64,000 bases of DNA from the NCBI RefSeq assembly GCF_024502345.1, contig NZ_JALDNN010000001.1, one strand, 5' to 3'. The position numbers and the translations under genes were made by a program. The notes beneath the pieces were generated by a model. The model was not told the DNA's origin and searched no databases. It was given only the letters and a program-made list of their open reading frames with translations. Shown here in pieces: positions 18,010 to 38,443 of this stretch (position 1 is its first letter; each line of letters begins with the position of its first letter). This DNA comes from Escherichia coli. Its GTDB lineage: Bacteria; Pseudomonadota; Gammaproteobacteria; Enterobacterales; Enterobacteriaceae.

Positions 18010-18832
18010 GTGTTCCCCGCGCCAGCGGGGATAAACCGCGCGATTTGTTAGCGCCCGTTGCGCCTGGTGGGTGTTCCCCGCGCCAGCGGGGATAAACCGC
18101 GCGAGTTCGTGCGCATGGGGCGCATTTTTGGCGTGTTCCCCGCGCCAGCGGGGATAAACCGCGGCGTTCATGCCCTCCAGCACTGTTACGCGGGTGTTCC
18201 CCGCGCCAGCGGGGATAAACCGTAGTCAAGCGGTAATTCATCGCCTGCAGATCCGAGTTCCCCGCGCCAGCGGGGATAAACCGGCTAATTTACGTAATTT
18301 ACGTGCTATTGCACTGAGTTCCCCGCGCCAGCGGGGATAAACCGTGGGTCATGCCGGTGATCGCCTGCCCGTCGTGGAGTTCCCCGCGCCAGCGGGGATA
18401 AACCATCACCACCGCTTGTCATAAAATTAGCGTCATAGAGTTCCCCGCGCCAGCGGGGATAAACCGGGGAGTGGCACTTCTGGGGTAGCGGCGGCCCTGA
18501 GTTCCCCGCGCCAGCGGGGATAAACCGTCAACGCGCTCAGACGTTGCGTGAGTGAACCAGAGTTCCCCGCGCCAGCGGGGATAAACCGAAATATCCAGGG
18601 CTGGGCTGGAGGCAGACGGCGAGTTCCCCGCGCCAGCGGGGATAAACCGGCGTTGATGTTCTTGCGGGTGTTGCAAATATTGAGTTCCCCGCGCCAGCGG
18701 GGATAAACCGTTTCAGCAGTTCAGCGTAACACCGACGGTCACGAGTTCCCCGCGCCAGCGGGGATAAACCGCCCGGAATGCATTCTGAAGGTTTGCTGTA
18801 TATGAGTTCCCCGCGCCAGCGGGGATAAACCA
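18010..18832 (+). CRISPR. type I-E CRISPR array, 14 repeats and 13 spacers, leader on the low-coordinate side
   Basis: 29-bp repeat G(T/A)GTTCCCCGCGCCAGCGGGGATAAACCG at 18010, 18071, 18133, 18194, 18255, 18316, 18377, 18438, 18499, 18560, 18621, 18682, 18743, 18804; spacers 32 bp (one of 33). Confidence 0.97.
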
Positions 18833-19286
18833 CCATATAACCCGTTATCTCTTTCTCAAGTTTTTATATTAGCAGTACTTGTAATAAGCAACATATCCAC
18901 GTAACACCTCATGTTCAAAATAGTTCTCCATGCCAGAGAGGTTCACAATTATCGATACAAAAAATTAAATTTAATCAAAGTGTTATTTGTATGACTCTTA
19001 AATCGTTAAGAAATTTTAATCTATTATTTTTTTAATATTGAATTAATGCCTGTTAATTTTTTCTTTAGAATAACAGTATATTTTTTAAGCTTGTTATTCA
19101 TTGGTTAAGTAATAAATCTGGAAGTTTGTCTTTGTTTTGAGGCTAATGAGTGGTTTTACATAACCGCCTCTATACGCTGTTGATGAATAGTTCTTATGAA
19201 TAAAGATATCCAGTTCATACTTTAAGTGAAAATTGATAAAGTGCGATTCGTATTGTCTTTAATTCTAAAGACATCGAGTGTAGTTA

Positions 19287-19424
19287 ATATTCCTTGTAAA
19301 AACAGGGATAAACCGAACTAGTTAAAGTTTTTATTATGTTCCCTGCATCAGCGGGGATAAACCGGACTTGTTATCATTTTTTAAGTTGTCGAACTTATGT
19401 TCCCCGCGTCAGCGGGGATAACCA
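19287..19424 (+). CRISPR. degenerate CRISPR remnant (2-3 eroded repeats)
   Basis: cagggataaaccg (19303-19315), atgttccctgcatcagcggggataaaccg (19336-19364), atgttccccgcgtcagcggggataacca (19397-19424); one 20-bp and one 32-bp interval. Confidence 0.65.
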
Positions 19425-19437
19425 TTTAGGTATGTTC

Positions 19438-19463
19438 AGGCCGGGCAGTTTTCCGCCCGGCCT
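19438..19463 (-). terminator. GC-rich hairpin just downstream of ygcE
   Basis: aggccgggc-agttttcc-gcccggcct stem-loop; weak U-tract. Confidence 0.35.
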
Positions 19464-19470
19464 ACCTCAT

Positions 19471-20949
19471 TCACGCATTCGACCAGCTCTGGATCGAATC
19501 CACATTCCCCAATTCCCCATGCATCACTTCATACGATTTTTTCAGGATCACATCAGTATGTTTGGTTAGGTCTTTGAAAATGCCTTTATTCATCGCGTCG
19601 TAGCGTTTGGCATTGCTCTCAATCGGTATAAAGATATCTTTCACGCGAACCATCTTATCAACAGCCGTTGCGTAATCCGGGTATAGCCCCAGACCTACCG
19701 CTGTATTAATCGCTGCTCCCAGACTTGCACAACCGTTAATGGCGTTACGGCGTGCCGGAAGGTTGAACACGTCGGCAAAAATTTGCATAAACAGATCGCT
19801 GTTCGAACCGCCGCCAGTAATGATCACATGCTTCGCAAAGTGATTCATTTCATTACACATATTGTCGTAATTGTTCTTCAGCGTTAGCGCCACGCTTTCC
19901 AATATCGAACGATATATCCATGCGTAATCCATGCTGGAATCAAAGCCGATCATAATCCCGCGTTTGTACGGTTCCCACGGATTGGTCAGCCAGTCCAGCA
20001 CCGTCATCAGCCCATTACAGCCAGGTGGCACACTAGAGGCTTTCTTGTTGAGTAAATCTTCCGGTGAAAGATCCTGCGCCCTGGCATCCTGAATTAACGA
20101 CTCGCCTAACATGTCACGCAGCCAGCTCACCGTCCACATACCTTTGCGAATACCGTAACCTTCATACAGCAATGTTTGCGGAATAGAAGACATAATCGGC
20201 CAGTACGCCACCGGATCTTTCGGCAGTGCTTTGCCGTTCATCATCAATGCGATGTAAGTGCCAAGAGAAATTACCGCAGTTTCATCATCCAGTAATCCGG
20301 CCCCCAGAGCTTCTACCGGTTTATCACTGGTGGTACAAACAACCGGCAGTCCTGCCGGGAAATGTGTCGCCAGTGCGGCTTGTGGTGTGATATGTCCGAG
20401 GACGGTGCCAGGCATTTGCACATCAAACAGCATATGACGGGGGATATTAAACTTATCCATTACCGCAGCATCTTCGCTCCATGCCCAGCTCTTATAATCC
20501 ACCGGCCACTGACCAAAATAGTTGGCGATATTGTCTTTAAACTCGCCGGTTAAGCGATGCGTCAGATAACCCGAAAAAGAGGTGACATACGCCACGTCAG
20601 GATTCGTATGTTCGTAAGGGCGTGTAACGCGTGCATCCTGCCAGCTAATCAACGGCGCAGCTGGCGTGCCGTCGGCTTTCAATAACGCACGGCAGCAACG
20701 GATGGAGCCCAGGCCGATGCCAACAATATCTTCTTTATTCCCGGCAAACTGGCTCATCAAATCGTGACCTGCAAAACATAATGATGCCCATAAATCGTCG
20801 TCAGGATGTTCTGCAGTATCGGCATAAGGCGTGTGCATCGGCTGTAATAAGCCTTTACCTTCGCAAACCACATTACCTTCCAGATCGTACATCACCACTT
20901 TTGTGCTCTGACTTCCGCCATCAATCCCTATGATGTATTTTTTCGACAT
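19471..20949 (-). CDS. ygcE: FGGY-family carbohydrate kinase
   Basis: 492-aa ORF with FGGY kinase N- and C-terminal signatures (IGIDGGSQSTKVV, GGGSNSDLFMQIFADV). Confidence 0.85.
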   Translation of the reverse strand: MSKKYIIGIDGGSQSTKVVMYDLEGNVVCEGKGLLQPMHTPYADTAEHPDDDLWASLCFAGHDLMSQFAGNKEDIVGIGLGSIRCCRALLKADGTPAAPLISWQDARVTRPYEHTNPDVAYVTSFSGYLTHRLTGEFKDNIANYFGQWPVDYKSWAWSEDAAVMDKFNIPRHMLFDVQMPGTVLGHITPQAALATHFPAGLPVVCTTSDKPVEALGAGLLDDETAVISLGTYIALMMNGKALPKDPVAYWPIMSSIPQTLLYEGYGIRKGMWTVSWLRDMLGESLIQDARAQDLSPEDLLNKKASSVPPGCNGLMTVLDWLTNPWEPYKRGIMIGFDSSMDYAWIYRSILESVALTLKNNYDNMCNEMNHFAKHVIITGGGSNSDLFMQIFADVFNLPARRNAINGCASLGAAINTAVGLGLYPDYATAVDKMVRVKDIFIPIESNAKRYDAMNKGIFKDLTKHTDVILKKSYEVMHGELGNVDSIQSWSNA

Positions 20950-20975
20950 GATTTTTCTCCTGTAATTTTCCTGGC

Positions 20976-22253
20976 TTACTTGCTGCTAGCCATTGCGGGG
21001 GCGCTATCAGCAGTACGAATTTTTTGGAACAGCAAAAAGGTAAAGACAATCACCATGGCAAGCGCCGCCATTCCCATCAGCCACATATTGCGGTAGGCTT
21101 CTGCTGCGGGCAGGGTGTCTTGCCAGTGGCCGATAATCGGGTAAACGAAGACATCCGGCAGGAATCCAATCACCGAACAAATACCTACCGTGGTGCCCAT
21201 AATGTAAGACGGTGTTCTCGCTTCGCCAGGGCAGGCCCAGTACAGCCCGCGTGAGGCGTAACAGGTGAATCCCAGCAGTAAAATCAGGCCAATCCCCATC
21301 GCGACCGATTGCGGGTTAGAGTTCGTGACGAGCAGGGCAGTTAACGCCAGCAGGTCGAGTACGGAAAGGATTTGGATCACGCGGGTAGGGGATTTCACTT
21401 TACTGTAGGTGGTGATAATGCCGCCAAGTGGGCCGCACAGCGCGCGGAAGATTTTGTTGATCACAATCCCCATGTAGCTCGCTGCCACCAGCGACATGCC
21501 GTACATTTCGGTCAGATAGTTGGTGGAGTAACTCAGAATGGCGTAGATTGTGAAGACACCAAAAATCACCATGCTGCAATACCAGGTGGTGCTGATACGC
21601 AAAACGGCAAGGATGTCGCTAAGCTGGAATGACTGTTTTTCTTCGTTATTGGCACTGCGCAGGTTGTTGTTATCGCTAACAAAAAACCAGCACAGAATCC
21701 CCAACAAGATGTAAACCACACTGTAGATGATAATGACTGTTTTCAGGCTGGCGCTGTCATCCGGTGCAAAGCGAGAAAAGACCCACATGGTAAACACCGC
21801 CAGCGACATTACACCGACGCCGCGCAGCCCTTCCATCCAGCCCATAATTTTCCCTTGCTCACTATGATCGCCCAGCAACGAGGCGGCTTTAATCGACACC
21901 GACCACAGCATTAAAATCGTCGTTATCGCAAAGGCGACCTGAATACAGAGCATTACCCACAGCGGTGGATACGTTGCCATTAACAGACCCAGTAATCCGG
22001 TAATGATCATCGCGGAAGTAATCATTTTGCGGTGTGAAAATTTATCGGCAATAACGCCGCTGGGGGCATAAAGAATAATAGCCGCAATACCAAAGGTACT
22101 CATTATTAAACCTATCTCGGTATTGCTGAATCCCATAAATTTCGCCATGGGAATTTGATAAATATAACGTAAATAAGCCAGGTCAAAACTAACGCCGCCG
22201 CTAAAACTAATTATCGCGAGGGTTATCCAACGGCGATATGAGTTGTGTTGCAT
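20976..22253 (-). CDS. yqcE: MFS transporter
   Basis: 425-aa multi-pass hydrophobic ORF. Confidence 0.8.
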   Translation of the reverse strand: MQHNSYRRWITLAIISFSGGVSFDLAYLRYIYQIPMAKFMGFSNTEIGLIMSTFGIAAIILYAPSGVIADKFSHRKMITSAMIITGLLGLLMATYPPLWVMLCIQVAFAITTILMLWSVSIKAASLLGDHSEQGKIMGWMEGLRGVGVMSLAVFTMWVFSRFAPDDSASLKTVIIIYSVVYILLGILCWFFVSDNNNLRSANNEEKQSFQLSDILAVLRISTTWYCSMVIFGVFTIYAILSYSTNYLTEMYGMSLVAASYMGIVINKIFRALCGPLGGIITTYSKVKSPTRVIQILSVLDLLALTALLVTNSNPQSVAMGIGLILLLGFTCYASRGLYWACPGEARTPSYIMGTTVGICSVIGFLPDVFVYPIIGHWQDTLPAAEAYRNMWLMGMAALAMVIVFTFLLFQKIRTADSAPAMASSK

Positions 22254-22431
22254 ATCGTATTCCCATTTGTAATAGAAAAAAAAAAGAGAAAAGTAAGCCG
22301 CCCTTTCAGGTGGATTACTTTTCTCAGGTCTCTAGTAATTGCAATAAGAAATAACATGGAAAGCAGAGGTGTTGTGTGAGAGTAATCACGCTTCTGCTTT
22401 TTAAAACTATTTGACAATACGAATATCACAC

Positions 22432-22447
22432 TGTGATTACGATCACA
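22432..22447. promoter_or_regulatory. CRP-like binding site (TGTGA-N6-TCACA)
   Basis: tgtgattacgatcaca, perfect match to both CRP half-sites, in the yqcE/ygcW divergent intergenic region; a ttgaca hexamer lies at 22411-22416. Confidence 0.5.
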
Positions 22448-22500
22448 TTAGCAGTTATGCCGTTATGCTAAAAATTATCTCCAGTTACCAGAGATAATGA

Positions 22501-22547
22501 GAAAGGTAACTTCCCTCTCGCGGGGGAAGTTACCTTTCTTTTTTTTT
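22501..22547 (+). terminator. intrinsic terminator-like hairpin upstream of ygcW (candidate attenuator)
   Basis: Perfect 15-bp stem gaaaggtaacttccc / gggaagttacctttc, 8-nt loop, then nine T; 24 nt before the ygcW ATG. Confidence 0.6.
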
Positions 22548-22571
22548 GCCTTACGGAAATTGGAGCTAACT

Positions 22572-23357
22572 ATGTCAATCGAATCTCTCAATGCGTTCTC
22601 AATGGATTTTTTCTCACTGAAAGGTAAAACCGCAATTGTTACCGGTGGGAATAGCGGTTTAGGCCAGGCATTTGCCATGGCGTTGGCCAAAGCTGGCGCA
22701 AATATCTTTATTCCTAGTTTCGTCAAAGATAACGGCGAAACAAAGGAAATGATTGAAAAACAGGGTGTTGAGGTGGACTTCATGCAGGTGGATATCACCG
22801 CAGAAGGCGCGCCGCAGAAGATTATCGCTGCTTGCTGTGAGCGTTTCGGTACAGTTGATATTCTGGTAAACAATGCCGGTATTTGTAAGCTGAATAAGGT
22901 GCTGGACTTCGGTCGTGCCGACTGGGATCCGATGATTGATGTGAACCTGACCGCCGCATTCGAGTTAAGCTATGAAGCGGCAAAAATTATGATCCCGCAG
23001 AAAAGCGGCAAAATTATTAATATCTGTTCATTGTTCTCTTACTTAGGTGGACAATGGTCACCTGCATATTCTGCCACTAAACATGCTCTTGCCGGATTCA
23101 CCAAAGCTTATTGTGATGAACTAGGTCAATATAATATTCAGGTAAATGGTATTGCCCCTGGCTATTATGCAACAGATATTACGCTGGCGACACGCAGTAA
23201 TCCAGAAACCAATCAGCGCGTTCTTGATCATATTCCGGCAAACCGTTGGGGCGATACTCAGGATTTAATGGGCGCAGCTGTATTCCTCGCAAGTCCGGCT
23301 TCAAATTATGTCAATGGGCATTTATTAGTGGTCGATGGTGGTTATTTAGTGCGCTAA
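22572..23357 (+). CDS. ygcW: short-chain dehydrogenase/reductase (SDR)
   Basis: Start taken at MSIESLNAF (261 aa); Rossmann TGGNSGLG motif and catalytic YSATK; the track ORF starts upstream at 22497 and would read through the hairpin. Confidence 0.8.
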   Translation: MSIESLNAFSMDFFSLKGKTAIVTGGNSGLGQAFAMALAKAGANIFIPSFVKDNGETKEMIEKQGVEVDFMQVDITAEGAPQKIIAACCERFGTVDILVNNAGICKLNKVLDFGRADWDPMIDVNLTAAFELSYEAAKIMIPQKSGKIINICSLFSYLGGQWSPAYSATKHALAGFTKAYCDELGQYNIQVNGIAPGYYATDITLATRSNPETNQRVLDHIPANRWGDTQDLMGAAVFLASPASNYVNGHLLVVDGGYLVR

Positions 23358-23426
23358 TCCATAACGGTGGTTTCTGTTTTCTCTTATTAATGATTATTCC
23401 ATTTTTATTATCAGGAAGGAATTACT

Positions 23427-24881
23427 ATGTCTTTATCTCGCGCAGCGATTGTCGACCAACTAAAGGAAATTGTTGGTGCAGATCGCGTAATTACCGATGA
23501 AACAGTATTAAAGAAGAACAGTATTGACCGTTTTCGTAAATTTCCGGATATTCATGGCATTTATACTTTGCCGATTCCGGCAGCGGTCGTAAAACTCGGT
23601 TCCACAGAGCAAGTATCCCGTGTGCTGAATTTTATGAATGCGCACAAAATTAACGGTGTGCCGCGTACCGGTGCTTCCGCCACCGAAGGTGGGCTGGAAA
23701 CTGTTGTAGAAAACTCGGTGGTGCTCGACGGTTCCGCCATGAATCAAATCATTAATATTGATATTGAGAATATGCAGGCGACGGCGCAATGTGGCGTTCC
23801 CCTGGAAGTGCTGGAAAATGCGTTGCGTGAAAAAGGTTACACCACGGGGCATTCTCCGCAGTCAAAGCCGCTGGCGCAGATGGGCGGCCTGGTAGCAACC
23901 CGCAGTATCGGGCAGTTCTCCACACTCTACGGCGCAATCGAAGATATGGTCGTTGGTCTGGAGGCAGTGTTGGCAGATGGCACCGTCACACGCATTAAAA
24001 ACGTGCCACGCCGCGCGGCTGGCCCGGACATTCGTCACATCATCATCGGCAACGAAGGTGCATTGTGCTATATCACTGAAGTAACAGTGAAAATCTTTAA
24101 ATTCACCCCGGAAAACAACCTCTTCTACGGCTATATCCTGGAAGACATGAAAACCGGCTTCAACATCCTGCGTGAAATCATGGTGGAAGGGTATCGTCCG
24201 TCGATCGCTCGTTTGTATGACGCTGAAGATGGCACCCAACACTTCACCCATTTTGCCGACGGTAAATGTGTGCTGATCTTTATGGCTGAAGGCAATCCTC
24301 GCATTGCGAAGGCGACGGGCGAAGGGATTGCGGAAATCGTTGCCCGCTACCCGCAGTGCCAGCGCGTGGACAGCAAACTGATCGAAACCTGGTTTAACAA
24401 CCTGAACTGGGGACCGGATAAAGTGGCTGCCGAACGTGTGCAGATCCTCAAAACCGGCAACATGGGCTTTACCACTGAAGTGTCCGGCTGCTGGAGCTGC
24501 ATCCACGAAATCTACGAAAGCGTTATTAACCGTATTCGTACTGAGTTCCCGCACGCCGACGACATCACCATGCTGGGCGGTCACTCCTCTCATAGCTATC
24601 ATAACGGCACCAACATGTACTTCGTCTACGATTACAACGTCGTTGACTGTAAGCCGGAAGAGGAAATCGACAAGTACCACAATCCGCTCAACAAGATCAT
24701 CTGTGAAGAAACCATTCGCCTCGGCGGTTCGATGGTGCACCACCACGGTATCGGTAAACATCGCGTTCACTGGAGCAAACTGGAACACGGCAGCGCGTGG
24801 GCGTTGCTGGAAGGGCTGAAAAAGCAGTTCGATCCTAATGGCATTATGAATACGGGTACTATCTATCCGATTGAAAAATAA
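23427..24881 (+). CDS. ygcU: FAD-linked oxidase (FAD-binding PCMH type)
   Basis: 484-aa ORF with FAD-binding domain and C-terminal oxidase domain (HHHGIGKHR). Confidence 0.8.
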   Translation: MSLSRAAIVDQLKEIVGADRVITDETVLKKNSIDRFRKFPDIHGIYTLPIPAAVVKLGSTEQVSRVLNFMNAHKINGVPRTGASATEGGLETVVENSVVLDGSAMNQIINIDIENMQATAQCGVPLEVLENALREKGYTTGHSPQSKPLAQMGGLVATRSIGQFSTLYGAIEDMVVGLEAVLADGTVTRIKNVPRRAAGPDIRHIIIGNEGALCYITEVTVKIFKFTPENNLFYGYILEDMKTGFNILREIMVEGYRPSIARLYDAEDGTQHFTHFADGKCVLIFMAEGNPRIAKATGEGIAEIVARYPQCQRVDSKLIETWFNNLNWGPDKVAAERVQILKTGNMGFTTEVSGCWSCIHEIYESVINRIRTEFPHADDITMLGGHSSHSYHNGTNMYFVYDYNVVDCKPEEEIDKYHNPLNKIICEETIRLGGSMVHHHGIGKHRVHWSKLEHGSAWALLEGLKKQFDPNGIMNTGTIYPIEK

Positions 24882-24974
24882 TGTGTCAGGCAGCGTTCCG
24901 CGATGACGGGGCGTTGCCTTTTCGGCTTCTCAGGCGAGAAGCCGTTCTTATTACCGGACAATGAAGGGGTAAAG

Positions 24975-26312
24975 ATGAACACTTCACCGGTGCGAATGGA
25001 TGATTTACCGCTTAACCGTTTTCACTGCCGCATTGCTGCGCTCACTTTCGGCGCACACCTGACCGACGGTTATGTTCTCGGCGTCATTGGTTACGCCATT
25101 ATTCAGCTTACGCCCGCCATGCAACTGACGCCGTTTATGGCGGGAATGATCGGCGGCTCGGCGCTCCTTGGTTTGTTTCTTGGCAGCCTGGTTCTTGGGT
25201 GGATCTCCGACCATATTGGTCGGCAAAAAATCTTCACCTTCAGCTTTTTGCTGATTACGCTCGCTTCGTTCTTGCAATTTTTTGCCACCACGCCAGAGCA
25301 TCTTATTGGGCTGCGCATTTTGATCGGCATTGGGCTGGGAGGCGATTACTCAGTTGGTCACACCTTGCTGGCTGAATTTTCCCCGCGCCGCCATCGCGGT
25401 ATTTTGCTGGGCGCATTCAGCGTGGTGTGGACCGTAGGTTATGTGCTGGCAAGTATTGCCGGACATCACTTTATTTCCGAAAACCCGGAGGCCTGGCGCT
25501 GGCTGCTGGCATCGGCAGCTCTGCCCGCATTGTTGATTACGTTATTACGCTGGGGAACGCCAGAATCGCCACGCTGGCTACTGCGCCAGGGGCGTTTTGC
25601 AGAAGCTCACGCTATCGTGCATCGCTATTTTGGTCCCCATGTTTTACTGGGCGATGAAGTGGCAACGGCGACCCATAAACACATCAAAACCTTGTTCTCT
25701 TCGCGCTACTGGCGGCGTACGGCGTTTAACAGCGTCTTCTTTGTCTGCCTCGTAATTCCATGGTTTGTGATTTATACCTGGCTGCCAACTATCGCCCAGA
25801 CTATTGGACTGGAAGATGCGCTGACTGCCAGCCTGATGCTTAATGCGTTGTTAATTGTGGGCGCGCTGCTGGGATTAGTTCTGACGCACCTGCTGGCACA
25901 TCGCAAGTTTTTGCTGGGAAGTTTTTTGCTGCTGGCGGCAACGCTGGTAGTGATGGCCTGTTTGCCTTCCGGCAGTTCATTAACGCTACTGCTTTTTGTT
26001 CTCTTCAGCACCACCATTTCGGCAGTCAGTAATCTGGTGGGCATTTTGCCTGCGGAAAGTTTTCCTACTGACATTCGCTCGCTGGGCGTCGGTTTTGCCA
26101 CCGCCATGAGTCGGTTGGGGGCGGCGGTAAGTACTGGCCTGCTGCCGTGGGTGCTGGCGCAGTGGGGAATGCAAGTTACCTTATTGATCCTGGCGGCAGT
26201 GTTGTTAGTTGGTTTTGTCGTGACCTGGCTATGGGCACCAGAAACCAAAGCACTCCCGCTGGTGGCGGCGGGAAATGTAGGAGGTGCGAATGAACATTCT
26301 GTTAGCGTTTAA
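24975..26312 (+). CDS. ygcS: MFS transporter (sugar-porter-like)
   Basis: Start taken at MNTSPVRMDDL (445 aa); 12-TM-like profile. Confidence 0.8.
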   Translation: MNTSPVRMDDLPLNRFHCRIAALTFGAHLTDGYVLGVIGYAIIQLTPAMQLTPFMAGMIGGSALLGLFLGSLVLGWISDHIGRQKIFTFSFLLITLASFLQFFATTPEHLIGLRILIGIGLGGDYSVGHTLLAEFSPRRHRGILLGAFSVVWTVGYVLASIAGHHFISENPEAWRWLLASAALPALLITLLRWGTPESPRWLLRQGRFAEAHAIVHRYFGPHVLLGDEVATATHKHIKTLFSSRYWRRTAFNSVFFVCLVIPWFVIYTWLPTIAQTIGLEDALTASLMLNALLIVGALLGLVLTHLLAHRKFLLGSFLLLAATLVVMACLPSGSSLTLLLFVLFSTTISAVSNLVGILPAESFPTDIRSLGVGFATAMSRLGAAVSTGLLPWVLAQWGMQVTLLILAAVLLVGFVVTWLWAPETKALPLVAAGNVGGANEHSVSV

Positions 26313-27069
26313 AGCCGAACCGGATGCCGGAATGCTGGCGGAAAAAGAGTGGCAGGCGGCGGCTCAGGGTAATAGCGGACCGGATGTTTCGCTACTGCGA
26401 AGTTTACTCGGTGCTGATGAACAGGCTGCCGCCGCGCTGCTGTTGGCGCAGATAAAAAACGGTACGCCGATGTCTTTAACCGCGTTGAGCATGGGGGATG
26501 AACGGGCGTTACACTGGCTGCGCTATCTCATGGCTCTTGGGTTTGAGGAAGCTGTATTGCTGGAGACGGCGGCAGATCTGCGCTTTGCACCGGAATTTGT
26601 CGCTCGCCATATTGCCGAATGGCAGCGTCAGAATCCGCTGGATCTGATAATTACCGGCTGCCAAAGCAGCGAAGGGCAGAATTGGCAAACGCCATTTTTG
26701 CTGGCGGAAATGCTGGGCTGGCCCTGCTTCACCCAGGTGGAGCGTTTCACTCTCGACGCGCCGTTTATCACCCTCGAACAGCGTACTGAACATGGGTTGC
26801 GTTGTTGCCGGGTTCGCTTGCCTGCGGTGATTGCCGTGCGCCAGTGTGGTGAAGTGGCCTTGCCAGTACCGGGAATGCGCCAGCGAATGGCTGCGGGGAA
26901 AGCGGAAATTATCCGTAAAACTGTTGCTGCCGAATTGCCAGCGATGCAGTGTCTGCAACTGGCAAGAGCAGAGCAACGACGCGGAGCGACGCTGATTGAT
27001 GGGAAAACGGTAGCAGAAAAAGCGCAAAAGCTATGGCAGGACTATTTACGCCAAAGGATGCAGCCATGA
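26290..27069 (+). CDS. ygcR: electron-transfer flavoprotein beta-subunit-like (FixA-like)
   Basis: 259-aa ORF from the ATG after a GTG; SD aggagg upstream; paired with an alpha-like subunit gene. Confidence 0.75.
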   Translation: MNILLAFKAEPDAGMLAEKEWQAAAQGNSGPDVSLLRSLLGADEQAAAALLLAQIKNGTPMSLTALSMGDERALHWLRYLMALGFEEAVLLETAADLRFAPEFVARHIAEWQRQNPLDLIITGCQSSEGQNWQTPFLLAEMLGWPCFTQVERFTLDAPFITLEQRTEHGLRCCRVRLPAVIAVRQCGEVALPVPGMRQRMAAGKAEIIRKTVAAELPAMQCLQLARAEQRRGATLIDGKTVAEKAQKLWQDYLRQRMQP

Positions 27070-27926
27070 ATATCGCAATTGTGACAATAAATCAGGAGAA
27101 TGCCGCATTAGCGGGCTGGCTGGCGGCGCAGGATTTCAGCGGTTGTACCCTGGCGCACTGGCAAATAGAACCACAGCCCGTAGTGGTGGAACAGGTGCTG
27201 GATGCGCTGGTGGAACAGTGGAAGCGAACGCCTACGGACGTTGTTCTCTTTCCGCAGGGAACGTTTGGCGATGAACTGTCGACCCGGCTGGCCTGGCGTT
27301 TACATGGTGCAAGCATCTGCCAGGTGACTTCGTTAGATATTCCAACCGTAAGCGTGCGCAAATCCCACTGGGGAAATGCGCTAACGGCGACGCTGCAAAC
27401 AGAAAAACGCCCGCTATGCCTTTCCCTGGCGCGTCAGGCGGGAGCAGAGAAAAACGCCACGTTGCCCTCTGGTATGCAGCAACTGAACATTGTCCCAGGT
27501 GCGCTTCCCGACTGGCTGGTTAGCATAGAGAATCTGAAAAATGTTAGCCGCGACCCATTAGCTGAAGCCAGACGGGTGCTGGTGGTGGGGCAGGGCGGAG
27601 AGGCAGATAACCAGGAAATCGCTATGCTGGCAGAAAAGCTGGGAGCCGAAGTGGGCTACAGTCGGGCGCGAGTGATGAACGGTGGCGTTGATGCTGAAAA
27701 AGTGATTGGTATTTCCGGACATCTGCTGGCACCTGAGGTGTGTATTGTTGTTGGCGCTTCTGGCGCAGCAGCGTTAATGGCGGGCGTACGCAATAGCAAG
27801 TTTGTGGTGGCGATTAATCATGACGCCAGCGCAGCGGTATTTTCACAGGCAGATGTTGGCGTGGTTGATGACTGGAAAGTGGTGCTGGAGGCACTGGTGA
27901 CAAACATTGACGCAGAATGCCAATAA
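27066..27926 (+). CDS. ygcQ: electron-transfer flavoprotein alpha-subunit-like (FixB-like)
   Basis: 286-aa ORF (start at MNIAIVTINQ), overlapping the ygcR stop. Confidence 0.75.
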   Translation: MNIAIVTINQENAALAGWLAAQDFSGCTLAHWQIEPQPVVVEQVLDALVEQWKRTPTDVVLFPQGTFGDELSTRLAWRLHGASICQVTSLDIPTVSVRKSHWGNALTATLQTEKRPLCLSLARQAGAEKNATLPSGMQQLNIVPGALPDWLVSIENLKNVSRDPLAEARRVLVVGQGGEADNQEIAMLAEKLGAEVGYSRARVMNGGVDAEKVIGISGHLLAPEVCIVVGASGAAALMAGVRNSKFVVAINHDASAAVFSQADVGVVDDWKVVLEALVTNIDAECQ

Positions 27927-27970
27927 CGTGCTGCCGGATGATCCTGCCTACGGTTCTGGACTGGGGACCT

Positions 27971-28007
27971 GTAGGCCTGATAAGACGCGTTAAGCGTCGC
28001 ATCAGGC
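27971..28007. repeat. REP element
   Basis: gtaggcctgataagacgcgttaagcgtcgcatcaggc between convergent ygcQ and ygcP. Confidence 0.7.
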
Positions 28008-28072
28008 GCTGAAGGTCGGATGTGGCATGCAGCCTACAAATCACACAAATTCAATTCGTTACGATTATCCCG

Positions 28073-28648
28073 TCAAAGCAATTTTTTAGCTAACGTCCAG
28101 ACTCCGGTATTCGTGGTGGAAAGCGCCACGACACCCGCGTTAATCGCATTACGCGCATTTTCTTCATCGCATACCAGCCCGCCAGCAATCAGCGGTTGAC
28201 GGATTTTCTCCGTCACCCAGCCCAGCACTTTGGGCATACAGCCAGGCAGGATCTCAATACAATCCGGATTCGATTGCGCAACTTGCTTATCAATGTTGTG
28301 AAACGAAATTGAATCAACAATAAACAGGCGATGAATACAGAAAAAACCTTCCGCTCTTGCCGCTTTCAGCATTGAGGCTTTGGTACTGATAATTCCGTCC
28401 GCCTCGGTCACCAGTTTCAAAAACTGAATCACGACTTCTTTATTTGACGCGCCTTCCAGCAAATCAACATGAATAAAAGCATATTTCCCGGCGTTCTTAA
28501 TCTTTTTAACGATATTACTGATGGTGCAGATATTGCCGTACAACACGGAAATAAACTGGCATTCAGAGTCGATTGCCAGTTGCAGGCTGGCATTATCTTT
28601 AACGGCAGCAATCACCGGATTCTGGCGGAGCAGGTGTAAGAGGGGCAT
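28073..28648 (-). CDS. ygcP: GlpP-like glycerol-3-phosphate-responsive antiterminator family protein
   Basis: 191-aa ORF; family assignment from recalled similarity, not computed. Confidence 0.7.
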   Translation of the reverse strand: MPLLHLLRQNPVIAAVKDNASLQLAIDSECQFISVLYGNICTISNIVKKIKNAGKYAFIHVDLLEGASNKEVVIQFLKLVTEADGIISTKASMLKAARAEGFFCIHRLFIVDSISFHNIDKQVAQSNPDCIEILPGCMPKVLGWVTEKIRQPLIAGGLVCDEENARNAINAGVVALSTTNTGVWTLAKKLL

Positions 28649-28664
28649 AAATTATCCTTTTTAC

Positions 28665-28925
28665 TTATCCAAAGCGGTAGGTGATGCCGAATCCGGAAGG
28701 CGGATAGCGCCACTGTTGTAGTGTTTTTTCGTCGCACAGCAAACGGCAGGTGCCACACTCCAGGCAGCCGTGATAATCAACGCGTAAGTCACCTTCCGGT
28801 GTGAGCGAAAAAAGACCAGCCGGACAAGCGTTAATCAACCGTTGTACCGTCTGGCGCTCAACGGAGTCAGCCGGAACAATGTGCGGCGCATCGGCAACGC
28901 GCCAGAGATTACGGGCTACAGACAT
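28665..28925 (-). CDS. ygcO: ferredoxin-like protein (FixX-like)
   Basis: Start at MSVARNLWRV (86 aa); cysteine cluster CLECGTCRLLC. Confidence 0.75.
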   Translation of the reverse strand: MSVARNLWRVADAPHIVPADSVERQTVQRLINACPAGLFSLTPEGDLRVDYHGCLECGTCRLLCDEKTLQQWRYPPSGFGITYRFG

Positions 28926-30187
28926 CGAACACTCCTGATAACATCGCCCGCCAGATGCCACAGGCCATGACGACGTAAATGACGCCAGAGTAACTGGCGC
29001 AGCGGTGGAACAGGTTTATCACCCTGATCCCATAAATCGCGGGAAATATCCTGCATTAACGCAGGCCACGTACGGTACCATCCCGGGCGTTGCAAAAGCG
29101 CCGGAACATGCTGATAACGCTGTAGAACATCCCACAGCAGGCTGCGCTCGACGTTGTGATGATAAAGCGGAAACAGATTTTGCGGCTCGCGGTGCTGGCA
29201 GGCGCTTATCAGTGTTTGTGCCGCCGCCTGCGCGCCAGTTAGCGCCGTATCCATGCCGCGCACGGAAATTCCGGTATTGACGCAACTGCGCAACGCATCG
29301 CCTACCAGCAGCCAGCCGTTACCGGCGTATTGCACTGGCATACTGTGCAAGCCACCTTCTGGCACCAGATGCGCACCATACTCCAGTGATTCCGTGTTTT
29401 TGATAAGCGGGCGCACTGCCGGATGCGTTTTAAAGCGAGCCAGCAGCTCGCTTGCCGGAACACGACTTTGCGTAAGGGAAGAGAGCGGGCAAACAATCCC
29501 TAACGAGAGCGTTTGTTGATTAGTATAAAGAAATGCGCCGCCGGGAAAGTCATCACAGATTCCGCCGCTGAACAGCAACGCTGCGCCTTCGTTATTCTCC
29601 AGATGAAAACGTTCTTCAATAGCGGATGTTTCCAGCGACAGCACTTCTTTGATCCCCAACGCCATCGCTTCGCCAGCAGGACGAGTCACTAATCCGTGAC
29701 GTTCAGCCAGGACGCTGTTGGCACCTTCTGCCAGCACCACATAACGGGCGCGGAGAATATCGTCACCACAAATGACACCACACACCCTGCCGTTTTCTTC
29801 ATACAGTGCATTCACCGTCGCTCCGGGGATGCATTCGACACCTTCTTTTTCGGCTTCGGCAACCAGCCACGGATCGAACCGTGCACGTAATACACTCCAG
29901 GATTCACCGCCGGGCTGTAAGCTGGAAAATGTCGTTACGCCATCGGGCGTTAACAGGGAAAGGCTTTCGTGAGTGATGCGTCGTTCAAGAGGCGCGGTCA
30001 GATGAAATTGCGGGAGGAGTTCCGCGAGTGCATGGGTATATAACCGCCCGCCGGAAAGATTTTTGCTGCCGGGGATTTCAGCGCGTTCCAGTAACAAAAC
30101 GGATAAACCCGCTCGCGCGCAGCGTAACGCGCAAGCGGTGCCTGCAATACCGGCACCAATAATAATAATGTCGCAGTCGTCTTCCAT
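28916..30187 (-). CDS. ygcN: FAD-dependent oxidoreductase (FixC-like)
   Basis: Start at MEDDCDIIIIGAGIAG (423 aa); N-terminal FAD-binding GxGxxG. Confidence 0.78.
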   Translation of the reverse strand: MEDDCDIIIIGAGIAGTACALRCARAGLSVLLLERAEIPGSKNLSGGRLYTHALAELLPQFHLTAPLERRITHESLSLLTPDGVTTFSSLQPGGESWSVLRARFDPWLVAEAEKEGVECIPGATVNALYEENGRVCGVICGDDILRARYVVLAEGANSVLAERHGLVTRPAGEAMALGIKEVLSLETSAIEERFHLENNEGAALLFSGGICDDFPGGAFLYTNQQTLSLGIVCPLSSLTQSRVPASELLARFKTHPAVRPLIKNTESLEYGAHLVPEGGLHSMPVQYAGNGWLLVGDALRSCVNTGISVRGMDTALTGAQAAAQTLISACQHREPQNLFPLYHHNVERSLLWDVLQRYQHVPALLQRPGWYRTWPALMQDISRDLWDQGDKPVPPLRQLLWRHLRRHGLWHLAGDVIRSVRCL

Positions 30188-30264
30188 GTCATGCCCCAGA
30201 TATCCAGAACACAACACCCTAACATAGCGTTACTTAAGGGAAATTGACCGCCGACACACTCTTA

Positions 30265-30630
30265 TCATTCGCCGCGATAGATACAACCAGCGGTGCAGGT
30301 TTCTTTTACCATCACCGCACTTAACAGCGGCACAACGGGTTTAACCTGATCCCAAATCCATTTTGCTAAAACTTCGCTGGTCGGGTTTTCCAGGCCTGGA
30401 ATATCATTGAGATAATGGTGATCGAGGCGCTCATAAGTTGGCTTAAACGCTGCTTTCAGTTCAGCGAAATCGATAACCCAGCCCGTATGCGGATCGACTT
30501 CCCCGGTAATTTCCAGTCGCACCATAAAGGAATGCCCGTGCAGGCGACCACATTTATGCCCTTCCGGGACGTGTGGTAAGCGGTGAGCGGCTTCGAAGGT
30601 GAAATCTTTAAATAACGTGGTGGACATCAT
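30265..30630 (-). CDS. queD: 6-carboxy-5,6,7,8-tetrahydropterin synthase
   Basis: Start at [10 protein letters not shown] (121 aa); conserved His residues and CGRLHGHSF motif; the track ORF is extended upstream. Confidence 0.88.
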
Positions 30631-30945
30631 AATTTCTCTACAGGACGATAAAACCGCCGTAGAGTACCGGAAAGGCTGTTTTTTCGCATTATCTAAAACG
30701 ACTTTGTTGCGCAAAATCGCTGATTTATCTTAATGATTGGCTAAATTCATTTGTTTTTCATTAGGTTGGTTAATCTATTTTGTTGTTAAAGACTATTGCT
30801 AAAACAGGTTAGTCGATTTGGTTATTAGTTATCGCTATCCCGTCTTTAATCCACACCGTTCACCCCGTTAACCTTACCTTCTCTTCTGTTTTATGGGCGC
30901 TGACAGGGCGCAGAAACAGCTTTGCTTACTGGAACATAACGACGC

Positions 30946-32745
30946 ATGACGACACAGGTCCCACCTTCCGCGTTGCTTCCGTTGAACCCGGAGCAACTGG
31001 CACGCCTTCAGGCGGCCACGACCGATTTAACTCCCACCCAGCTTGCCTGGGTTTCTGGCTATTTCTGGGGCGTGCTCAATCAGCAGCCTGCTGCGCTTGC
31101 AGCAACGCCAGCGCCAGCCGCAGAAATGCCGGGTATAACTATTATCTCCGCCTCGCAAACCGGCAATGCGCGCCGGGTTGCTGAAGCATTACGTGATGAT
31201 TTATTAGCGGCAAAACTGAACGTTAAGCTGGTGAACGCGGGCGACTATAAATTCAAACAAATCGCCAGCGAAAAACTGCTTATCGTGGTGACGTCAACGC
31301 AAGGAGAAGGGGAACCGCCGGAAGAAGCCGTCGCGCTGCATAAGTTCCTGTTCTCCAAAAAAGCGCCGAAGCTGCAAAACACCGCATTTGCCGTGTTTAG
31401 CCTCGGCGATAGCTCTTATGAATTTTTCTGCCAGTCCGGGAAAGATTTTGACAGCAAGCTGGCGGAACTGGGCGGTGAACGCCTGCTCGACCGTGTCGAT
31501 GCCGACGTTGAATACCAGACCGCTGCCAGCGAGTGGCGCGCTCGCGTGGTTGATGCGCTTAAATCGCGTGCGCCTGTCGCGGCACCTTCGCAATCCGTCG
31601 CTACTGGCGCGGTAAATGAAATCCACACCAGCCCGTACAGCAAAGACTCGCCGCTGGTGGCGAGCCTCTCTGTTAACCAGAAAATTACCGGGCGTAACTC
31701 TGAAAAAGACGTTCGCCATATCGAAATTGACTTAGGTGACTCGGGCCTGCGTTACCAGCCGGGTGACGCGCTGGGCGTCTGGTATCAGAACGATCCGGCA
31801 CTGGTGAAAGAACTTGTCGAACTGCTGTGGCTGAAAGGCGATGAACCTGTCACCGTCGAGGGCAAAACGTTGCCTCTGAACGAAGCGCTACAGTGGCACT
31901 TCGAACTGACCGTCAACACCGCCAATATTGTTGAGAACTATGCCACGCTTACCCGCAGCGAAACGCTGTTGCCGCTGGTGGGCGATAAAGCGAAGTTACA
32001 GCATTACGCCGCGACTACGCCGATTGTCGATATGGTGCGCTTCTCTCCGGCGCAACTGGACGCCGAAGCGCTGATTAATCTGCTGCGCCCGCTGACGCCG
32101 CGTCTCTATTCCATCGCCTCCTCGCAGGCGGAAGTCGAGAACGAAGTACACGTCACCGTTGGTGTGGTGCGTTACGACGTGGAAGGCCGCGCCCGTGCCG
32201 GTGGTGCCTCCAGCTTCCTCGCGGACCGCGTGGAAGAAGAGGGCGAAGTTCGCGTATTTATCGAACATAACGATAACTTCCGCCTGCCCGCTAACCCGGA
32301 AACCCCGGTGATTATGATTGGCCCAGGCACCGGCATCGCGCCGTTCCGCGCCTTTATGCAGCAGCGCGCCGCTGACGAAGCGCCGGGTAAAAACTGGCTG
32401 TTCTTTGGCAACCCGCATTTTACGGAAGATTTCCTCTACCAGGTGGAGTGGCAGCGCTACGTCAAAGAGGGCGTGCTGACACGTATCGATCTCGCCTGGT
32501 CGCGCGATCAAAAAGAAAAAGTTTACGTACAAGACAAACTGCGCGAACAGGGCGCGGAGCTGTGGCGCTGGATCAATGACGGTGCCCACATTTATGTCTG
32601 CGGCGACGCTAATCGCATGGCGAAAGACGTTGAGCAGGCACTTCTGGAAGTGATTGCCGAATTTGGTGGCATGGACACCGAAGCGGCGGATGAATTTTTA
32701 AGTGAGCTGCGCGTAGAGCGCCGTTATCAGCGAGATGTCTACTAA
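30946..32745 (+). CDS. cysJ: sulfite reductase [NADPH] flavoprotein alpha component
   Basis: 599-aa ORF with flavodoxin-like and FAD/NADPH-binding domains; the cysI start overlaps its stop. Confidence 0.95.
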
Positions 32746-35870: not shown

Positions 35871-38135
<2,265 letters not shown>

Positions 38136-38231
38136 GTTAGACGTTCTTTAAAAATAAGGAAATGTTTTAATTTAGTTGGTAGATTGTTGATGCGGAATAA
38201 ATTTGTTTAAAAACAGTTATGTATGCTTAGT

Positions 38232-38443
38232 GTGTTCCCCGCGCCAGCGGGGATAAACCGGGGCCGACGGTCGCAGTATTGGACCATTTCAAGTGTTCCC
38301 CGCGCCAGCGGGGATAAACCGACTCTTACATGCTTAATCAGATTCTGGCGGATGTGTTCCCCGCGCCAGCGGGGATAAACCGGGCGCACTGGATGCGATG
38401 ATGGATATCACTTAGAATTCCCCGCCCCTGCGGTAGAACTCCC
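38232..38443 (+). CRISPR. short type I-E CRISPR array: 3 intact repeats, 3 spacers and a degenerate terminal repeat
   Basis: GTGTTCCCCGCGCCAGCGGGGATAAACCG at 38232, 38293, 38354; 32-bp spacers; degenerate repeat gaattccccgcccctgcggtagaactccc at 38415-38443; truncated leader 38136-38231. Confidence 0.92.

Follow-up and report, generated by a model that had tools for sequence, protein, structure and literature searches.

A Putative Antitermination-Controlled Regulon Centered on an AGPS-Like Flavoenzyme in the ygc Cluster of Escherichia coli

Introduction

The ygc cluster of Escherichia coli, which we analyzed in a 64,000-nt stretch of contig NZ_JALDNN010000001.1 (assembly GCF_024502345.1; this whole stretch is called the window below), comprises ten genes whose closest described counterparts belong to several systems. 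Alkyl-dihydroxyacetone phosphate synthase (AGPS) converts acyl-dihydroxyacetone phosphate (acyl-DHAP) and a fatty alcohol to alkyl-DHAP through an adduct at flavin N5, and, to our knowledge, it is known only as an ether-lipid synthase of animals and protists. GlpP of Bacillus subtilis acts by antitermination at the glpD leader in a glycerol-3-phosphate-dependent manner. FixABCX of E. coli is linked to carnitine, a quaternary amine that is taken up by the BCCT carrier CaiT. Roles in the handling of betaine-type quaternary amines are established for non-pyrrolysine MttB proteins, BCCT carriers, and OpuA systems. The ygc cluster encodes an AGPS-like flavoenzyme, a GlpP-family protein, and a set of proteins resembling FixABCX, together with a kinase, a dehydrogenase, and two transporters.

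The ygc genes are long-known orphans. The original prediction for this locus, made from the sequence alone, had stated that no substrate was established, and this still holds, as the literature that we searched assigns neither a substrate nor a pathway to the cluster. Searches of the literature with the ygc gene names and with AGPS, FGGY, BCCT, and betaine-lipid themes returned no pathway assignment and no description of the leader RNAs, of an AGPS-type active site in YgcU, or of a link to betaines. A published test of a ygcU deletion on D-serine was negative, and in one paper "ygcO" is interchanged with "YcgO" in a passage, apparently a misprint of ycgO. What is new here is thus the regulatory element and the enzymatic hypothesis rather than the genes.

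We propose, with a probability of roughly 0.45, that the ygc cluster is a catabolite-controlled, antitermination-induced regulon whose chemistry is centered on an AGPS-like flavoenzyme, and that it may convert a 1-substituted glycerol, probably with a betaine-type head group, to DHAP.

Results

Gene Content and the Conserved Core

Annotation was carried over from NZ_CM168010, open reading frames (ORFs) were re-derived, and families were assigned with Pfam and NCBIfam. All ten ygc-cluster genes are intact ORFs in the window, and the families originally proposed for them were all reproduced by Pfam and NCBIfam; none of the ten proteins reaches an NCBIfam equivalog cutoff. The ten genes had been placed at 22497-30217, and while the genes are real, that span holds only eight of them, with ygcE and yqcE lying at 19471-22253. 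Its ends also need adjustment: the ATG at 22497 sits within an intrinsic-terminator hairpin, the true ygcW start being 22572, and 30217 is an upstream GTG, the annotated ygcN start being 30187. The genes are listed below.

ygcE, 19471-20949, minus strand: FGGY kinase (Pfam FGGY_N and FGGY_C), second gene of the yqcE-ygcE operon
yqcE, 20976-22253, minus strand: major facilitator superfamily (MFS) transporter (Pfam MFS_1)
ygcW, 22572-23357, plus strand: short-chain dehydrogenase (SDR), KduD-like (Pfam adh_short)
ygcU, 23427-24881, plus strand: flavoprotein with Pfam FAD_binding_4 (123.9 bits) and FAD-oxidase_C (71.2 bits)
ygcS, 24903-26312, plus strand: MFS transporter of sugar-porter or organic-cation-like type (Pfam Sugar_tr)
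ygcR, 26290-27069, plus strand: divergent protein like the beta subunit of electron transfer flavoprotein (ETF) (Pfam ETF), start overlapping the ygcS end
ygcQ, 27066-27926, plus strand: divergent ETF alpha-like protein (Pfam ETF_alpha and ETF), start overlapping the ygcR stop (ATGA)
ygcP, 28073-28648, minus strand: GlpP-family protein (Pfam G3P_antiterm, PF04309)
ygcO, 28665-28925, minus strand: FixX-like ferredoxin
ygcN, 28916-30187, minus strand: FixC/YdiS-like flavoprotein with the ubiquinone-binding domain of ETF:quinone oxidoreductase (ETF-QO), first gene of ygcN-ygcO-ygcP

Several of these proteins lie at some distance from characterized families. The best equivalog for YgcE is XylB, at 142 bits against a cutoff of 380, and its nearest solved structures are the autoinducer-2 (AI-2) kinase LsrK followed by glycerol kinases. 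YgcW falls short of KduD membership, with 350.6 bits against NF005390 (cutoff 369) and 276 bits against TIGR01832 (cutoff 339). The top NCBIfam subfamilies for YgcS, all below cutoff, are an aromatic-acid symporter, a sugar porter, and the cation transporter TIGR00898. A YqcE orthologue (58% identical) precedes an FGGY gene in Photobacterium (locus L070; loci outside the window are given by their L numbers), where it stands behind a copy of the leader described below.

The cluster is a regular part of the E. coli genome. Region 22000-31000 matches 5431 E. coli records, the best full-length identity being 98.3%, and at least 80% of it is found in 5086 of 5426 complete E. coli genomes; the gene order is repeated across Enterobacterales. 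A scan with YgcU, restricted to one genome per species, gave 67 loci, to which more were added later, and all ten proteins were mapped onto 71 loci. Among these, ygcU is accompanied by ygcW in 69, ygcE in 65, ygcP in 58, ETF genes in 51, and ygcN/ygcO in 44, and all 44 loci with ygcN/ygcO are from Enterobacterales. Erwinia, Pantoea, Izhakiella, Ewingella, and several Serratia species have the core and not a single ETF/Fix gene, and aerobic halophilic Bacillaceae have ygcW-ygcU-ygcE followed by a regulator of the RpiR family with helix-turn-helix (HTH) and SIS domains. Between E. coli and Firmicutes, Vibrionaceae, or Desulfobacterota, YgcW is 62-80% and YgcU 54-73% identical, compared with about 30% for the ETF proteins. 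The unit that is conserved across phyla is therefore ygcW, ygcU, and ygcE, usually with ygcP, while the ETF pair is accessory and the FixCX pair is confined to Enterobacterales.

The same division is seen over short evolutionary distances. Within Escherichia and near relatives, the ratio of nonsynonymous to synonymous substitution rates (dN/dS) is 0.005-0.02 for ygcW, ~0.01 for ygcU, 0.01-0.05 for ygcP, and ~0.03 for ygcE; it is 0.09-0.27 for ygcR, 0.14-0.24 for ygcQ, and 0.06-0.13 for ygcN, with ygcR, ygcQ, and ygcO together spanning 0.09-0.27. The ETF/Fix genes are thus 5-20 times less constrained than the core. Since their dN/dS stays at 0.06-0.27, pseudogene decay of the ETF/Fix genes can be ruled out, and the electron transfer genes are therefore functional but accessory and under far weaker constraint.

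Two side observations concern the genomes surveyed. Across the E. coli-labeled genomes of the species-representative collection, differences of 3-13% in the ETF proteins contrast with 99-100% identity of YgcW and YgcU. Two loci, L003 (labeled as a metagenome-assembled genome (MAG) of Planctomycetota) and L026 (Chryseobacterium sp.), carry enterobacterial ygc genes with YgcU identities of 100% and 88%, likely reflecting contamination or mislabeling of public assemblies.

Two Leader RNAs and a Likely Antiterminator

The region between yqcE and ygcW contains the following elements.

Leader copy 1, 22479-22547, plus strand: 5' leader of ygcW-ygcU-ygcS-ygcR-ygcQ, 71.9 bits with our covariance model R1
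Leader copy 2, 22277-22344, minus strand: 5' leader of yqcE-ygcE, 68.8 bits with R1 (E 1e-10)
CRP-like site TGTGATTACGATCACA, 22432-22447: divergent promoter region, read from the sequence
TTGACA hexamer, 22411-22416: divergent yqcE/ygcW promoter region

Copy 1 contains a 19-bp hairpin with a U-run at 22499-22540 and ends 31 nt before the ygcW ATG. The hairpins fold with -34.2 kcal/mol (z -6.1) in copy 1 and -22.3 kcal/mol (z -4.1) in copy 2. Both copies conform to the motif CAGUUACY-AGAGA-N3-5-GAGAAARGUAACUUCC-loop-GGAAG..UACYUUUCUC-U8, which occurs twice in every Enterobacterales locus with the full yqcE-ygcW intergenic region, and also in Photobacterium, Sporomusa, a Syntrophomonadaceae MAG, and other Firmicutes. 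Bulges keep a strict hairpin finder from detecting the yqcE copy and the leaders of non-enteric loci; these were recovered with a regular expression for the motif and with R1. Both leaders are retained in 5047 E. coli genomes; K-12 is among them, and its leaders are 98% identical to those of the window.

Two mutually exclusive structures emerge from an alignment of 57 leaders. Pairing amounts to 95.9% in the terminator stem, where 5 of 11 pairs show compensatory changes. In the alternative upstream helix of AGUUACY with RGUAACU, which would act as an antiterminator, it amounts to 92.5%, and compensatory changes are seen in 4 of the 7 pairs. Both helices outscore all 500 shuffled alignments in covariation score, in the percentage of cells paired, and in the cells changed on both sides, and they also outscore every slid register; RNAalifold independently predicts the terminator. 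Model R1 gave 117 matches in 1.4 Mb of loci, all of them at intergenic leader positions of ygc-type clusters, and in the window it finds exactly the two leader sites, the weak extra matches being the same hairpins on the opposite strand. R1 gives no leader match upstream of ygcN. A permissive scan of 19000-31000 with Rfam 15 returned no match at either leader, and RefSeq carries no annotation at these sites.

The GlpP-like family of YgcP, noted originally, is confirmed, as YgcP matches PF04309 with 209.2 bits over profile positions 1-173 of 173 and PDB 3kts at E 1e-27. What the original prediction did not see are the two terminator/antiterminator leaders as its possible target. Loci with ygcP have the leader; the 11 loci that hold the full region and lack ygcP do not. 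Since the leader tracks ygcP and the G3P_antiterm match is full length, YgcP is likely the RNA-binding antiterminator of both leaders. In Enterococcus canis (L067), ygcP is present and the leader match is weak (30 bits).

In the divergent promoter region, TGTGATTACGATCACA may act as a CRP site, to judge from its sequence. In previous studies, yqcE and ygcW were among the top CRP-site predictions of PhyloScan (PMC1794230), and the yqcE-ygcE unit was reported as Crp-activated (PMC8085971).

A different kind of element was observed in Bacillaceae, where paired GAAAATTTTC-like palindromes lie upstream of ygcW (L057, L058, L060-L062, and L068). These are probably operators of the adjacent RpiR-family regulator. 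Two of these loci, L060 and L068, combine the palindromes with a ygcP/leader pair, and the leader there precedes an OpuA-type operon.

YgcU as an AGPS-Like Flavoenzyme

The best PDB sequence matches of YgcU are alkyl-DHAP synthases (AGPS; E 4e-40), followed by glycolate oxidase, D-lactate dehydrogenases, and LctD. When a profile of 20 YgcU family members was used instead, the AGPS match improved to E 7e-63 with both domains aligned. In the profile alignment, which follows guinea-pig numbering and also covers 4bby, the Y578F mutant structure 4bca places AGPS Tyr578 on YgcU Y398, and the R419H mutant structure 4bc7 places Arg419 on R262. Further, the AGPS segment GGSLSHHHGVGK (His615-617, the HHH loop) aligns with YgcU GGSMVHHHGIGK (H438-440). 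All of these positions, R262, Y398, and H438-440, are invariant among the 20 family members. A Foldseek search with the AlphaFold model of YgcU, which has a mean pLDDT (the predicted local confidence score) of 74 and low confidence around the flavin and HHH loops, returned AGPS structures as all of its top 33 matches, with TM-scores of 0.65-0.73.

By contrast, YgcU does not belong to the LctD/GlcD type, as it has VHHHGIGK rather than the GlcD-type EHG[IV]G. In the clusters of anaerobes, the gene of a second FAD_binding_4 oxidase stands immediately behind that of ETF alpha; its product shares only 17-20% identity with YgcU, carries a GlcD/LctD-type SEHGVGK motif, and lacks the AGPS Tyr and Arg. 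No such second oxidase with a GlcD-type EHG motif is present in the window. Going by these sequence comparisons, YgcU is an AGPS-like enzyme rather than an AGPS orthologue. We propose that it would work in the catabolic direction and expel a small polar leaving group.

Genes Adjoining the Leader and the Core in Other Bacteria

The leader marks a wider set of genes in other bacteria. It directly precedes BCCT carrier genes in L066 and L069, and it lies upstream of OpuA-type ABC operons in L060, L068, L080, L081, and L083, MttB-family ORFs without in-frame TAG in L075, L079, L084, L085, and L086, and a pair of YqcE-type MFS and FGGY genes in Photobacterium. A metagenome scan with the clostridial form of the motif gave 12 contigs, on which the leader targets include the ygcW operon (three cases), OpuA-type ABC operons (three), and MttB-family genes (five). 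One leader-linked MttB protein matches PF06253 with 352 bits, and its gene is followed by a PanB-like gene and an OpuAC-type transporter. The possibility that these MttB proteins are pyrrolysine-type trimethylamine methyltransferases was ruled out, as they have no in-frame TAG: the three complete ORFs (L077, L079, and L084; 487-494 amino acids) are amber-free, and the truncated ones have no TAG in their sequenced part.

Genes of related kinds adjoin the core itself. Three MttB genes surround the module in L071, and in L072 its neighbors encode an MttB protein, an aldehyde:ferredoxin oxidoreductase, and a GlpD-like protein; PlsC-like genes adjoin the module in L053. In Erwinia, Pantoea, and Serratia, ygcS sits in an operon with genes for an aldo-keto reductase (AKR) and a Fae-like protein, and in L073 a BCCT carrier takes the place of YgcS in such an operon, the AKR being 71% and the Fae-like protein 55% identical. 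Because the leader precedes BCCT, OpuA-type, and MttB genes, we infer that the substrate of the family most likely carries a betaine-type quaternary-amine group.

Some further neighborhoods are recorded here as observations. In Alkalihalobacillus oceani (L074, 612-11443), genes for OpuAC, Lyase_1, Aldedh, a zinc-dependent alcohol dehydrogenase (Zn-ADH), BCCT, SDR, FGGY, and YgcU follow one another on the same strand behind a sigma-54 activator; it is purely speculative that this string might oxidize a betaine alcohol to the acid and then eliminate trimethylamine by a lyase. One-carbon enzymes also recur by the module: Fae-like and AKR genes (with ygcS) occur in L033, L034, L039, L046, L048, and L050, and further cases lie at 3888-7390 in L073 and 7854-8705 in L079. 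Their types also include a GFA-family protein and, within an MttB/OpuA operon under leader control, a PanB-like hydroxymethyltransferase. These one-carbon neighbors may hint at the release of formaldehyde or a hydroxymethyl group from the head group.

The Accessory ETF/FixCX Module

The pairing of an ETF/FixCX-like module with catabolic enzymes and transporters, as originally described, is borne out. That description was headed by the FixABCX-like module, which is indeed present but appears as an accessory rather than the center, being absent from many clusters. By domain composition, YgcR and YgcQ are ETF proteins, YgcR matching PF01012 with 58.4 bits and YgcQ matching PF00766 and PF01012 with 64.3 and 29.7 bits, but they fall far short of the FixAB equivalogs (FixA 33.3 bits against a cutoff of 219; FixB 64.5 bits against 549). 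YgcQ scores human ETF alpha and the bifurcating LctC equally, and the YgcR matches are weak, so that PDB searches with the two proteins did not separate bifurcating from non-bifurcating ETF. YgcN reaches 374.9 bits with PRK10015 (cutoff 466) and 358.9 bits with FixC (cutoff 610) and contains PF21162 (ETFQO_UQ-bd); YgcO reaches 82.7 bits with FixX (cutoff 166) and has the cysteine motif CPAG...CLECGTCRLLC. YgcN and YgcO thus belong to the FixCX type at the family level only.

The FAD-linked oxidase YgcU had been named as the obvious candidate for the redox partner of the ETF, and it remains so because ygcU, ETF beta, and ETF alpha are directly adjacent in at least 10 non-enteric loci. Canonical AGPS chemistry involves no net redox change. 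The pairing is therefore not secure, since such chemistry would be redox-neutral, many clusters are free of ETF, and in anaerobes a GlcD/LctD-type oxidase follows ETF alpha in an lctBCD-like order. Most likely, the ETF/FixCX proteins are an accessory that connects the reaction of YgcU with the quinone pool, and this is the weakest step of our proposal; the connection could serve an oxidative variant of the cleavage or the upkeep of the flavin redox state.

A 2009 study listed ygcR among the deletions that protect E. coli from mazEF-dependent death after DNA damage (PMC2646832), a phenotype with no evident link to a metabolic role of the cluster.

Flanking Features

The flanks are as originally described, with a CRISPR array on one side and queD and cysJIH on the other.

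Type I-E CRISPR array, 18012-18832: 14 repeats, on one flank of the cluster
queD, 30265-30627, minus strand: on the other flank, with cysJIH from 30946

A lone degenerate CRISPR repeat with three mismatches lies at 19338-19364, ~500 bp past the 14-repeat array and ~100 bp away from where ygcE stops. At 27975-28010, where ygcQ and ygcP converge, the space between them holds a palindrome resembling repetitive extragenic palindromes and bacterial interspersed mosaic elements (REP/BIME), with a weak, sub-threshold Rfam match to naRNA4 (E 0.11). Farther away, at 35874-38382, a Cas3 sequence with HD, helicase, and C-terminal domains continues in frame, within one ORF of 753 amino acids, into the C-terminal portion of Cas2 (PF09707, residues 677-744); this ORF is followed by only three CRISPR repeats (38234-38382) and then by an iap-like M28 peptidase gene. 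casABCDE-cas1 appear to have been lost by an internal deletion at this site.

Discussion

A Model for Regulation and Catabolism

The operons yqcE-ygcE and ygcW-ygcU-ygcS-ygcR-ygcQ diverge from one promoter region, which has a CRP-like site. Both transcripts open with the leader, which by default folds into an intrinsic terminator, the 5' arm of which can instead pair with the AGUUACY segment upstream. YgcP, made from the separate ygcN-ygcO-ygcP unit, may bind the leader when loaded with a phosphorylated intermediate and thereby allow read-through. Sensing of a phospho-intermediate is also hinted at by the observation that clusters carry either YgcP or an RpiR regulator with a SIS domain, and by the GlpD-like neighbor in L072 and the PlsC-like neighbors in L053. 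In the proposed pathway, the MFS carriers would import a 1-substituted glycerol, X-CH2-CHOH-CH2OH, YgcE would phosphorylate the free primary hydroxyl, and YgcW would oxidize C2 with NAD+. YgcU could then expel the C1 substituent by AGPS-type covalent flavin chemistry, giving DHAP and the freed head group, while YgcRQ and YgcNO might, as an accessory, carry electrons between this reaction and the quinone pool. One compound carrying X could be glyceryl-trimethylhomoserine, a betaine lipid in deacylated form. If the core always acts on the glycerol end and variable genes act on the head group, this would explain why the core is nearly invariant and the neighbors differ. In E. coli, which lacks head-group genes, one of the two MFS carriers could simply pass the head group out of the cell.

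Several points weigh against this proposal. YgcU lacks ~160 N-terminal residues of AGPS, the alignment beginning at AGPS 164 and YgcU 8; the AGPS cap region 437-524 is not aligned with YgcU; and the AlphaFold model of YgcU is only of moderate quality, as its mean pLDDT indicates. AGPS displaces a carboxylate, and the displacement of an alkoxide or amine is an extrapolation. As the chemistry would be redox-neutral, it leaves the conserved ygcU-ETF adjacency unexplained. The suggested substrate is deduced solely from homology and gene context, and the other enzymes do not single it out: among solved structures, the AI-2 kinase LsrK comes closer to YgcE than any glycerol kinase does, and YgcW, just below the KduD cutoff, would fit sugar-acid chemistry equally well. 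Genes of the BCCT, Opu, and MttB kinds are all missing from the cluster in E. coli, whose two carriers are MFS proteins with non-specific family scores. On the regulatory side, L032 has two leaders and no ygcP within 10 kb, and L060 and L068 have ygcP and RpiR yet lack a leader ahead of ygcW, so that regulation does not follow one scheme throughout.

A more far-reaching version, which we hold to be rather unlikely as it stands, is that the core, YgcP, and the leader constitute a widespread and undescribed pathway for glyceryl-linked betaines, with the head groups of deacylated DGTS, DGTA, and DGCC as leading candidates. Catabolic AGPS chemistry would break the ether at glycerol C1 of a phosphorylated, C2-oxidized intermediate, yielding DHAP and a betaine alcohol. 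The head group might then be processed by lineage-specific enzymes, such as MttB, alcohol dehydrogenase (ADH), aldehyde dehydrogenase (ALDH), and Lyase_1-family proteins, or Fae-, GFA-, or PanB-like proteins. One new class of GlpP-dependent leader RNA would control all of these, and E. coli would harvest the glycerol part only.

Alternative Explanations

It is somewhat unlikely that the cluster encodes an ETF-linked dehydrogenase route for a sugar, polyol, or sugar acid, in which YgcE and YgcW would act and YgcU would oxidize a hydroxy group in the manner of LctD or D-2-hydroxyglutarate dehydrogenase, passing electrons through YgcRQ and YgcNO to quinone. Such a route would account for the non-enteric loci, at least 10 in number, in which ygcU is directly followed by ETF beta/alpha, for the resemblance of YgcU to glycolate oxidase/D-lactate dehydrogenase and to LctD of the Ldh-EtfAB complex 7qh2, and for the ETF-QO ubiquinone-binding domain of YgcN; the near-cutoff KduD score of YgcW and the sugar-porter-type MFS YgcS would fit as well. 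However, YgcU has the AGPS HHH loop, Tyr, and Arg, and the EHG motif occurs in the separate oxidase of anaerobes. ETF genes are missing from many clusters, and the leader is linked to betaine-type transporters and MttB genes, not to sugar transporters. A sugar-type catabolic set, which the original prediction had envisaged, is unlikely for the same reasons, namely the AGPS type of YgcU and the ties of the leader to BCCT, OpuA-type, and MttB genes. A glycerol or glycerol-phosphate route, with YgcE as a glycerol-type kinase, YgcU as an ETF-dependent dehydrogenase of glycerol-3-phosphate or of glycerol-1-phosphate, the enantiomer, that yields DHAP, and YgcP as a sensor of glycerol-3-phosphate, is clearly improbable: it leaves no role for the most conserved gene, that of the SDR YgcW (62-80% identity, dN/dS ~0.01), and E. 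coli and its relatives are known to possess GlpK, GlpD, and GlpABC already. This is so even though the AGPS-like site is built for a DHAP skeleton, proteins of the GlpP family, which YgcP matches, are known glycerol-3-phosphate sensors, glycerol kinases are among the closest solved relatives of YgcE, and L072 has a GlpD-like neighbor. Under this explanation, the quaternary-amine genes would be co-regulated for no other reason than that the natural source is a glycerophospho-diester such as glycerophosphocholine, but no phosphodiesterase gene recurs in the clusters, and BCCT and OpuA systems are not known as carriers of glycerophosphodiesters.

Two other explanations deserve far less weight. 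That the cluster is cryptic or decaying, an evolutionary leftover in E. coli, appears very unlikely, given ten intact ORFs, dN/dS of 0.005-0.05 in the core and 0.06-0.27 in the ETF/Fix genes, and the retention of the cluster in 5086 of 5426 genomes and of both leaders in 5047; it would agree with the far weaker constraint on the ETF/Fix genes and with the literature, in which we found no growth phenotype on any substrate. We find it hardly credible that YgcU is a true alkyl-DHAP synthase for ether lipids, in a cluster that supplies or modifies glycerol-phosphate lipid precursors. YgcU keeps the catalytic residues of AGPS, and PlsC-like acyltransferases stand beside the module in one locus (L053), yet the N-terminal region of AGPS is absent from YgcU and the cap region that forms the alkyl tunnel is unaligned. 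The cluster has no fatty-acyl reductase or other lipid-synthesis gene, its uptake transporters, CRP site, and substrate-type induction would be out of place in biosynthesis, and E. coli is not known to make ether lipids.

Implications

Taken together, the original prediction is partly supported, and a regulon centered on an AGPS-like flavoenzyme is the explanation that we favor. If it is true, nine y-genes of K-12 and their Enterobacterales partners would gain a regulator, an RNA target, an order of enzymes, and a product, DHAP, and covalent flavin chemistry of the AGPS type would for the first time be seen in catabolism. E. coli would gain a GlpP-type antitermination switch made of protein and RNA, with a leader motif that spans Proteobacteria and Firmicutes and lies outside Rfam. 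The regulon defined by this leader would tie glycerol-type chemistry to betaine uptake and demethylation in anaerobes of the gut, the sea, and soda lakes, which has a bearing on quaternary-amine turnover and trimethylamine-related metabolism. The third ETF/FixCX set of E. coli would be recast as an accessory add-on instead of the core of a system. The model is directly testable in K-12.

Comparison with Known Systems

The closest enzymatic parallel is AGPS, the peroxisomal ether-lipid flavoenzyme (PDB 4bby and 2uuu), which has in common with YgcU the FAD_binding_4/FAD-oxidase_C fold and the residues corresponding to Arg419, Tyr578, and His615-617. The two differ in the ~160 N-terminal residues that YgcU lacks, in the unaligned cap (437-524), and in context, as the cluster that encodes YgcU is CRP-controlled and also holds genes for a kinase, a dehydrogenase, and transporters, with ETF genes often next to ygcU. 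In its regulation, the ygc cluster resembles GlpP/glpD of B. subtilis, with a PF04309 protein, intrinsic-terminator leaders before catabolic and transport operons, and an inducer that by analogy would presumably be a phosphorylated intermediate. Unlike GlpP/glpD, the ygc system is found in E. coli and other Proteobacteria, controls a non-glp regulon, and has a leader without an Rfam family.

The electron transfer genes correspond to FixABCX and YdiQRST of E. coli in having ETF beta, ETF alpha, a FixC-type flavoprotein, and a FixX-type ferredoxin, and YgcN is a close paralogue of FixC and YdiS (359-375 bits). However, YgcR and YgcQ are very divergent, the two halves of the ygc module lie in different operons, there is no acyl-CoA dehydrogenase or CoA-transferase partner, and the module is dispensable in many homologous clusters. 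A flavoenzyme of the VAO/GlcD superfamily beside ETF beta/alpha is also found in Ldh-EtfAB (LctBCD) of Acetobacterium woodii and in the ETF-dependent D-2-hydroxyglutarate dehydrogenase, and the ygc clusters of anaerobes have ETF beta, ETF alpha, and a GlcD-type oxidase in lctBCD order. By contrast, E. coli has no EHG-motif GlcD-type oxidase in its ygc cluster, and the active site of YgcU is of the AGPS type.

Among polyol pathways, GlpK/GlpD for glycerol and EryA/EryB of Brucella for erythritol likewise place an FGGY kinase before oxidation to a keto-phosphate. The ygc pathway would differ in that the oxidation is assigned to an NAD-type SDR, the flavoenzyme is AGPS-like and not GlpD-like, and an additional step breaking the bond at C1 is proposed. 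The non-pyrrolysine MttB systems (MtgB, MtpB, MtcB, and MtyB) have their counterpart in anaerobic Firmicutes, where the leader precedes amber-free MttB ORFs beside OpuA-type transporters; E. coli has no such gene, and our literature search found no earlier link of MttB systems with a GlpP-type switch or an AGPS-like enzyme. By analogy, then, the ygc cluster would work like GlpP/glpD antitermination joined to a kinase-first polyol route, with bond-breaking of the AGPS kind and a Fix-like add-on.

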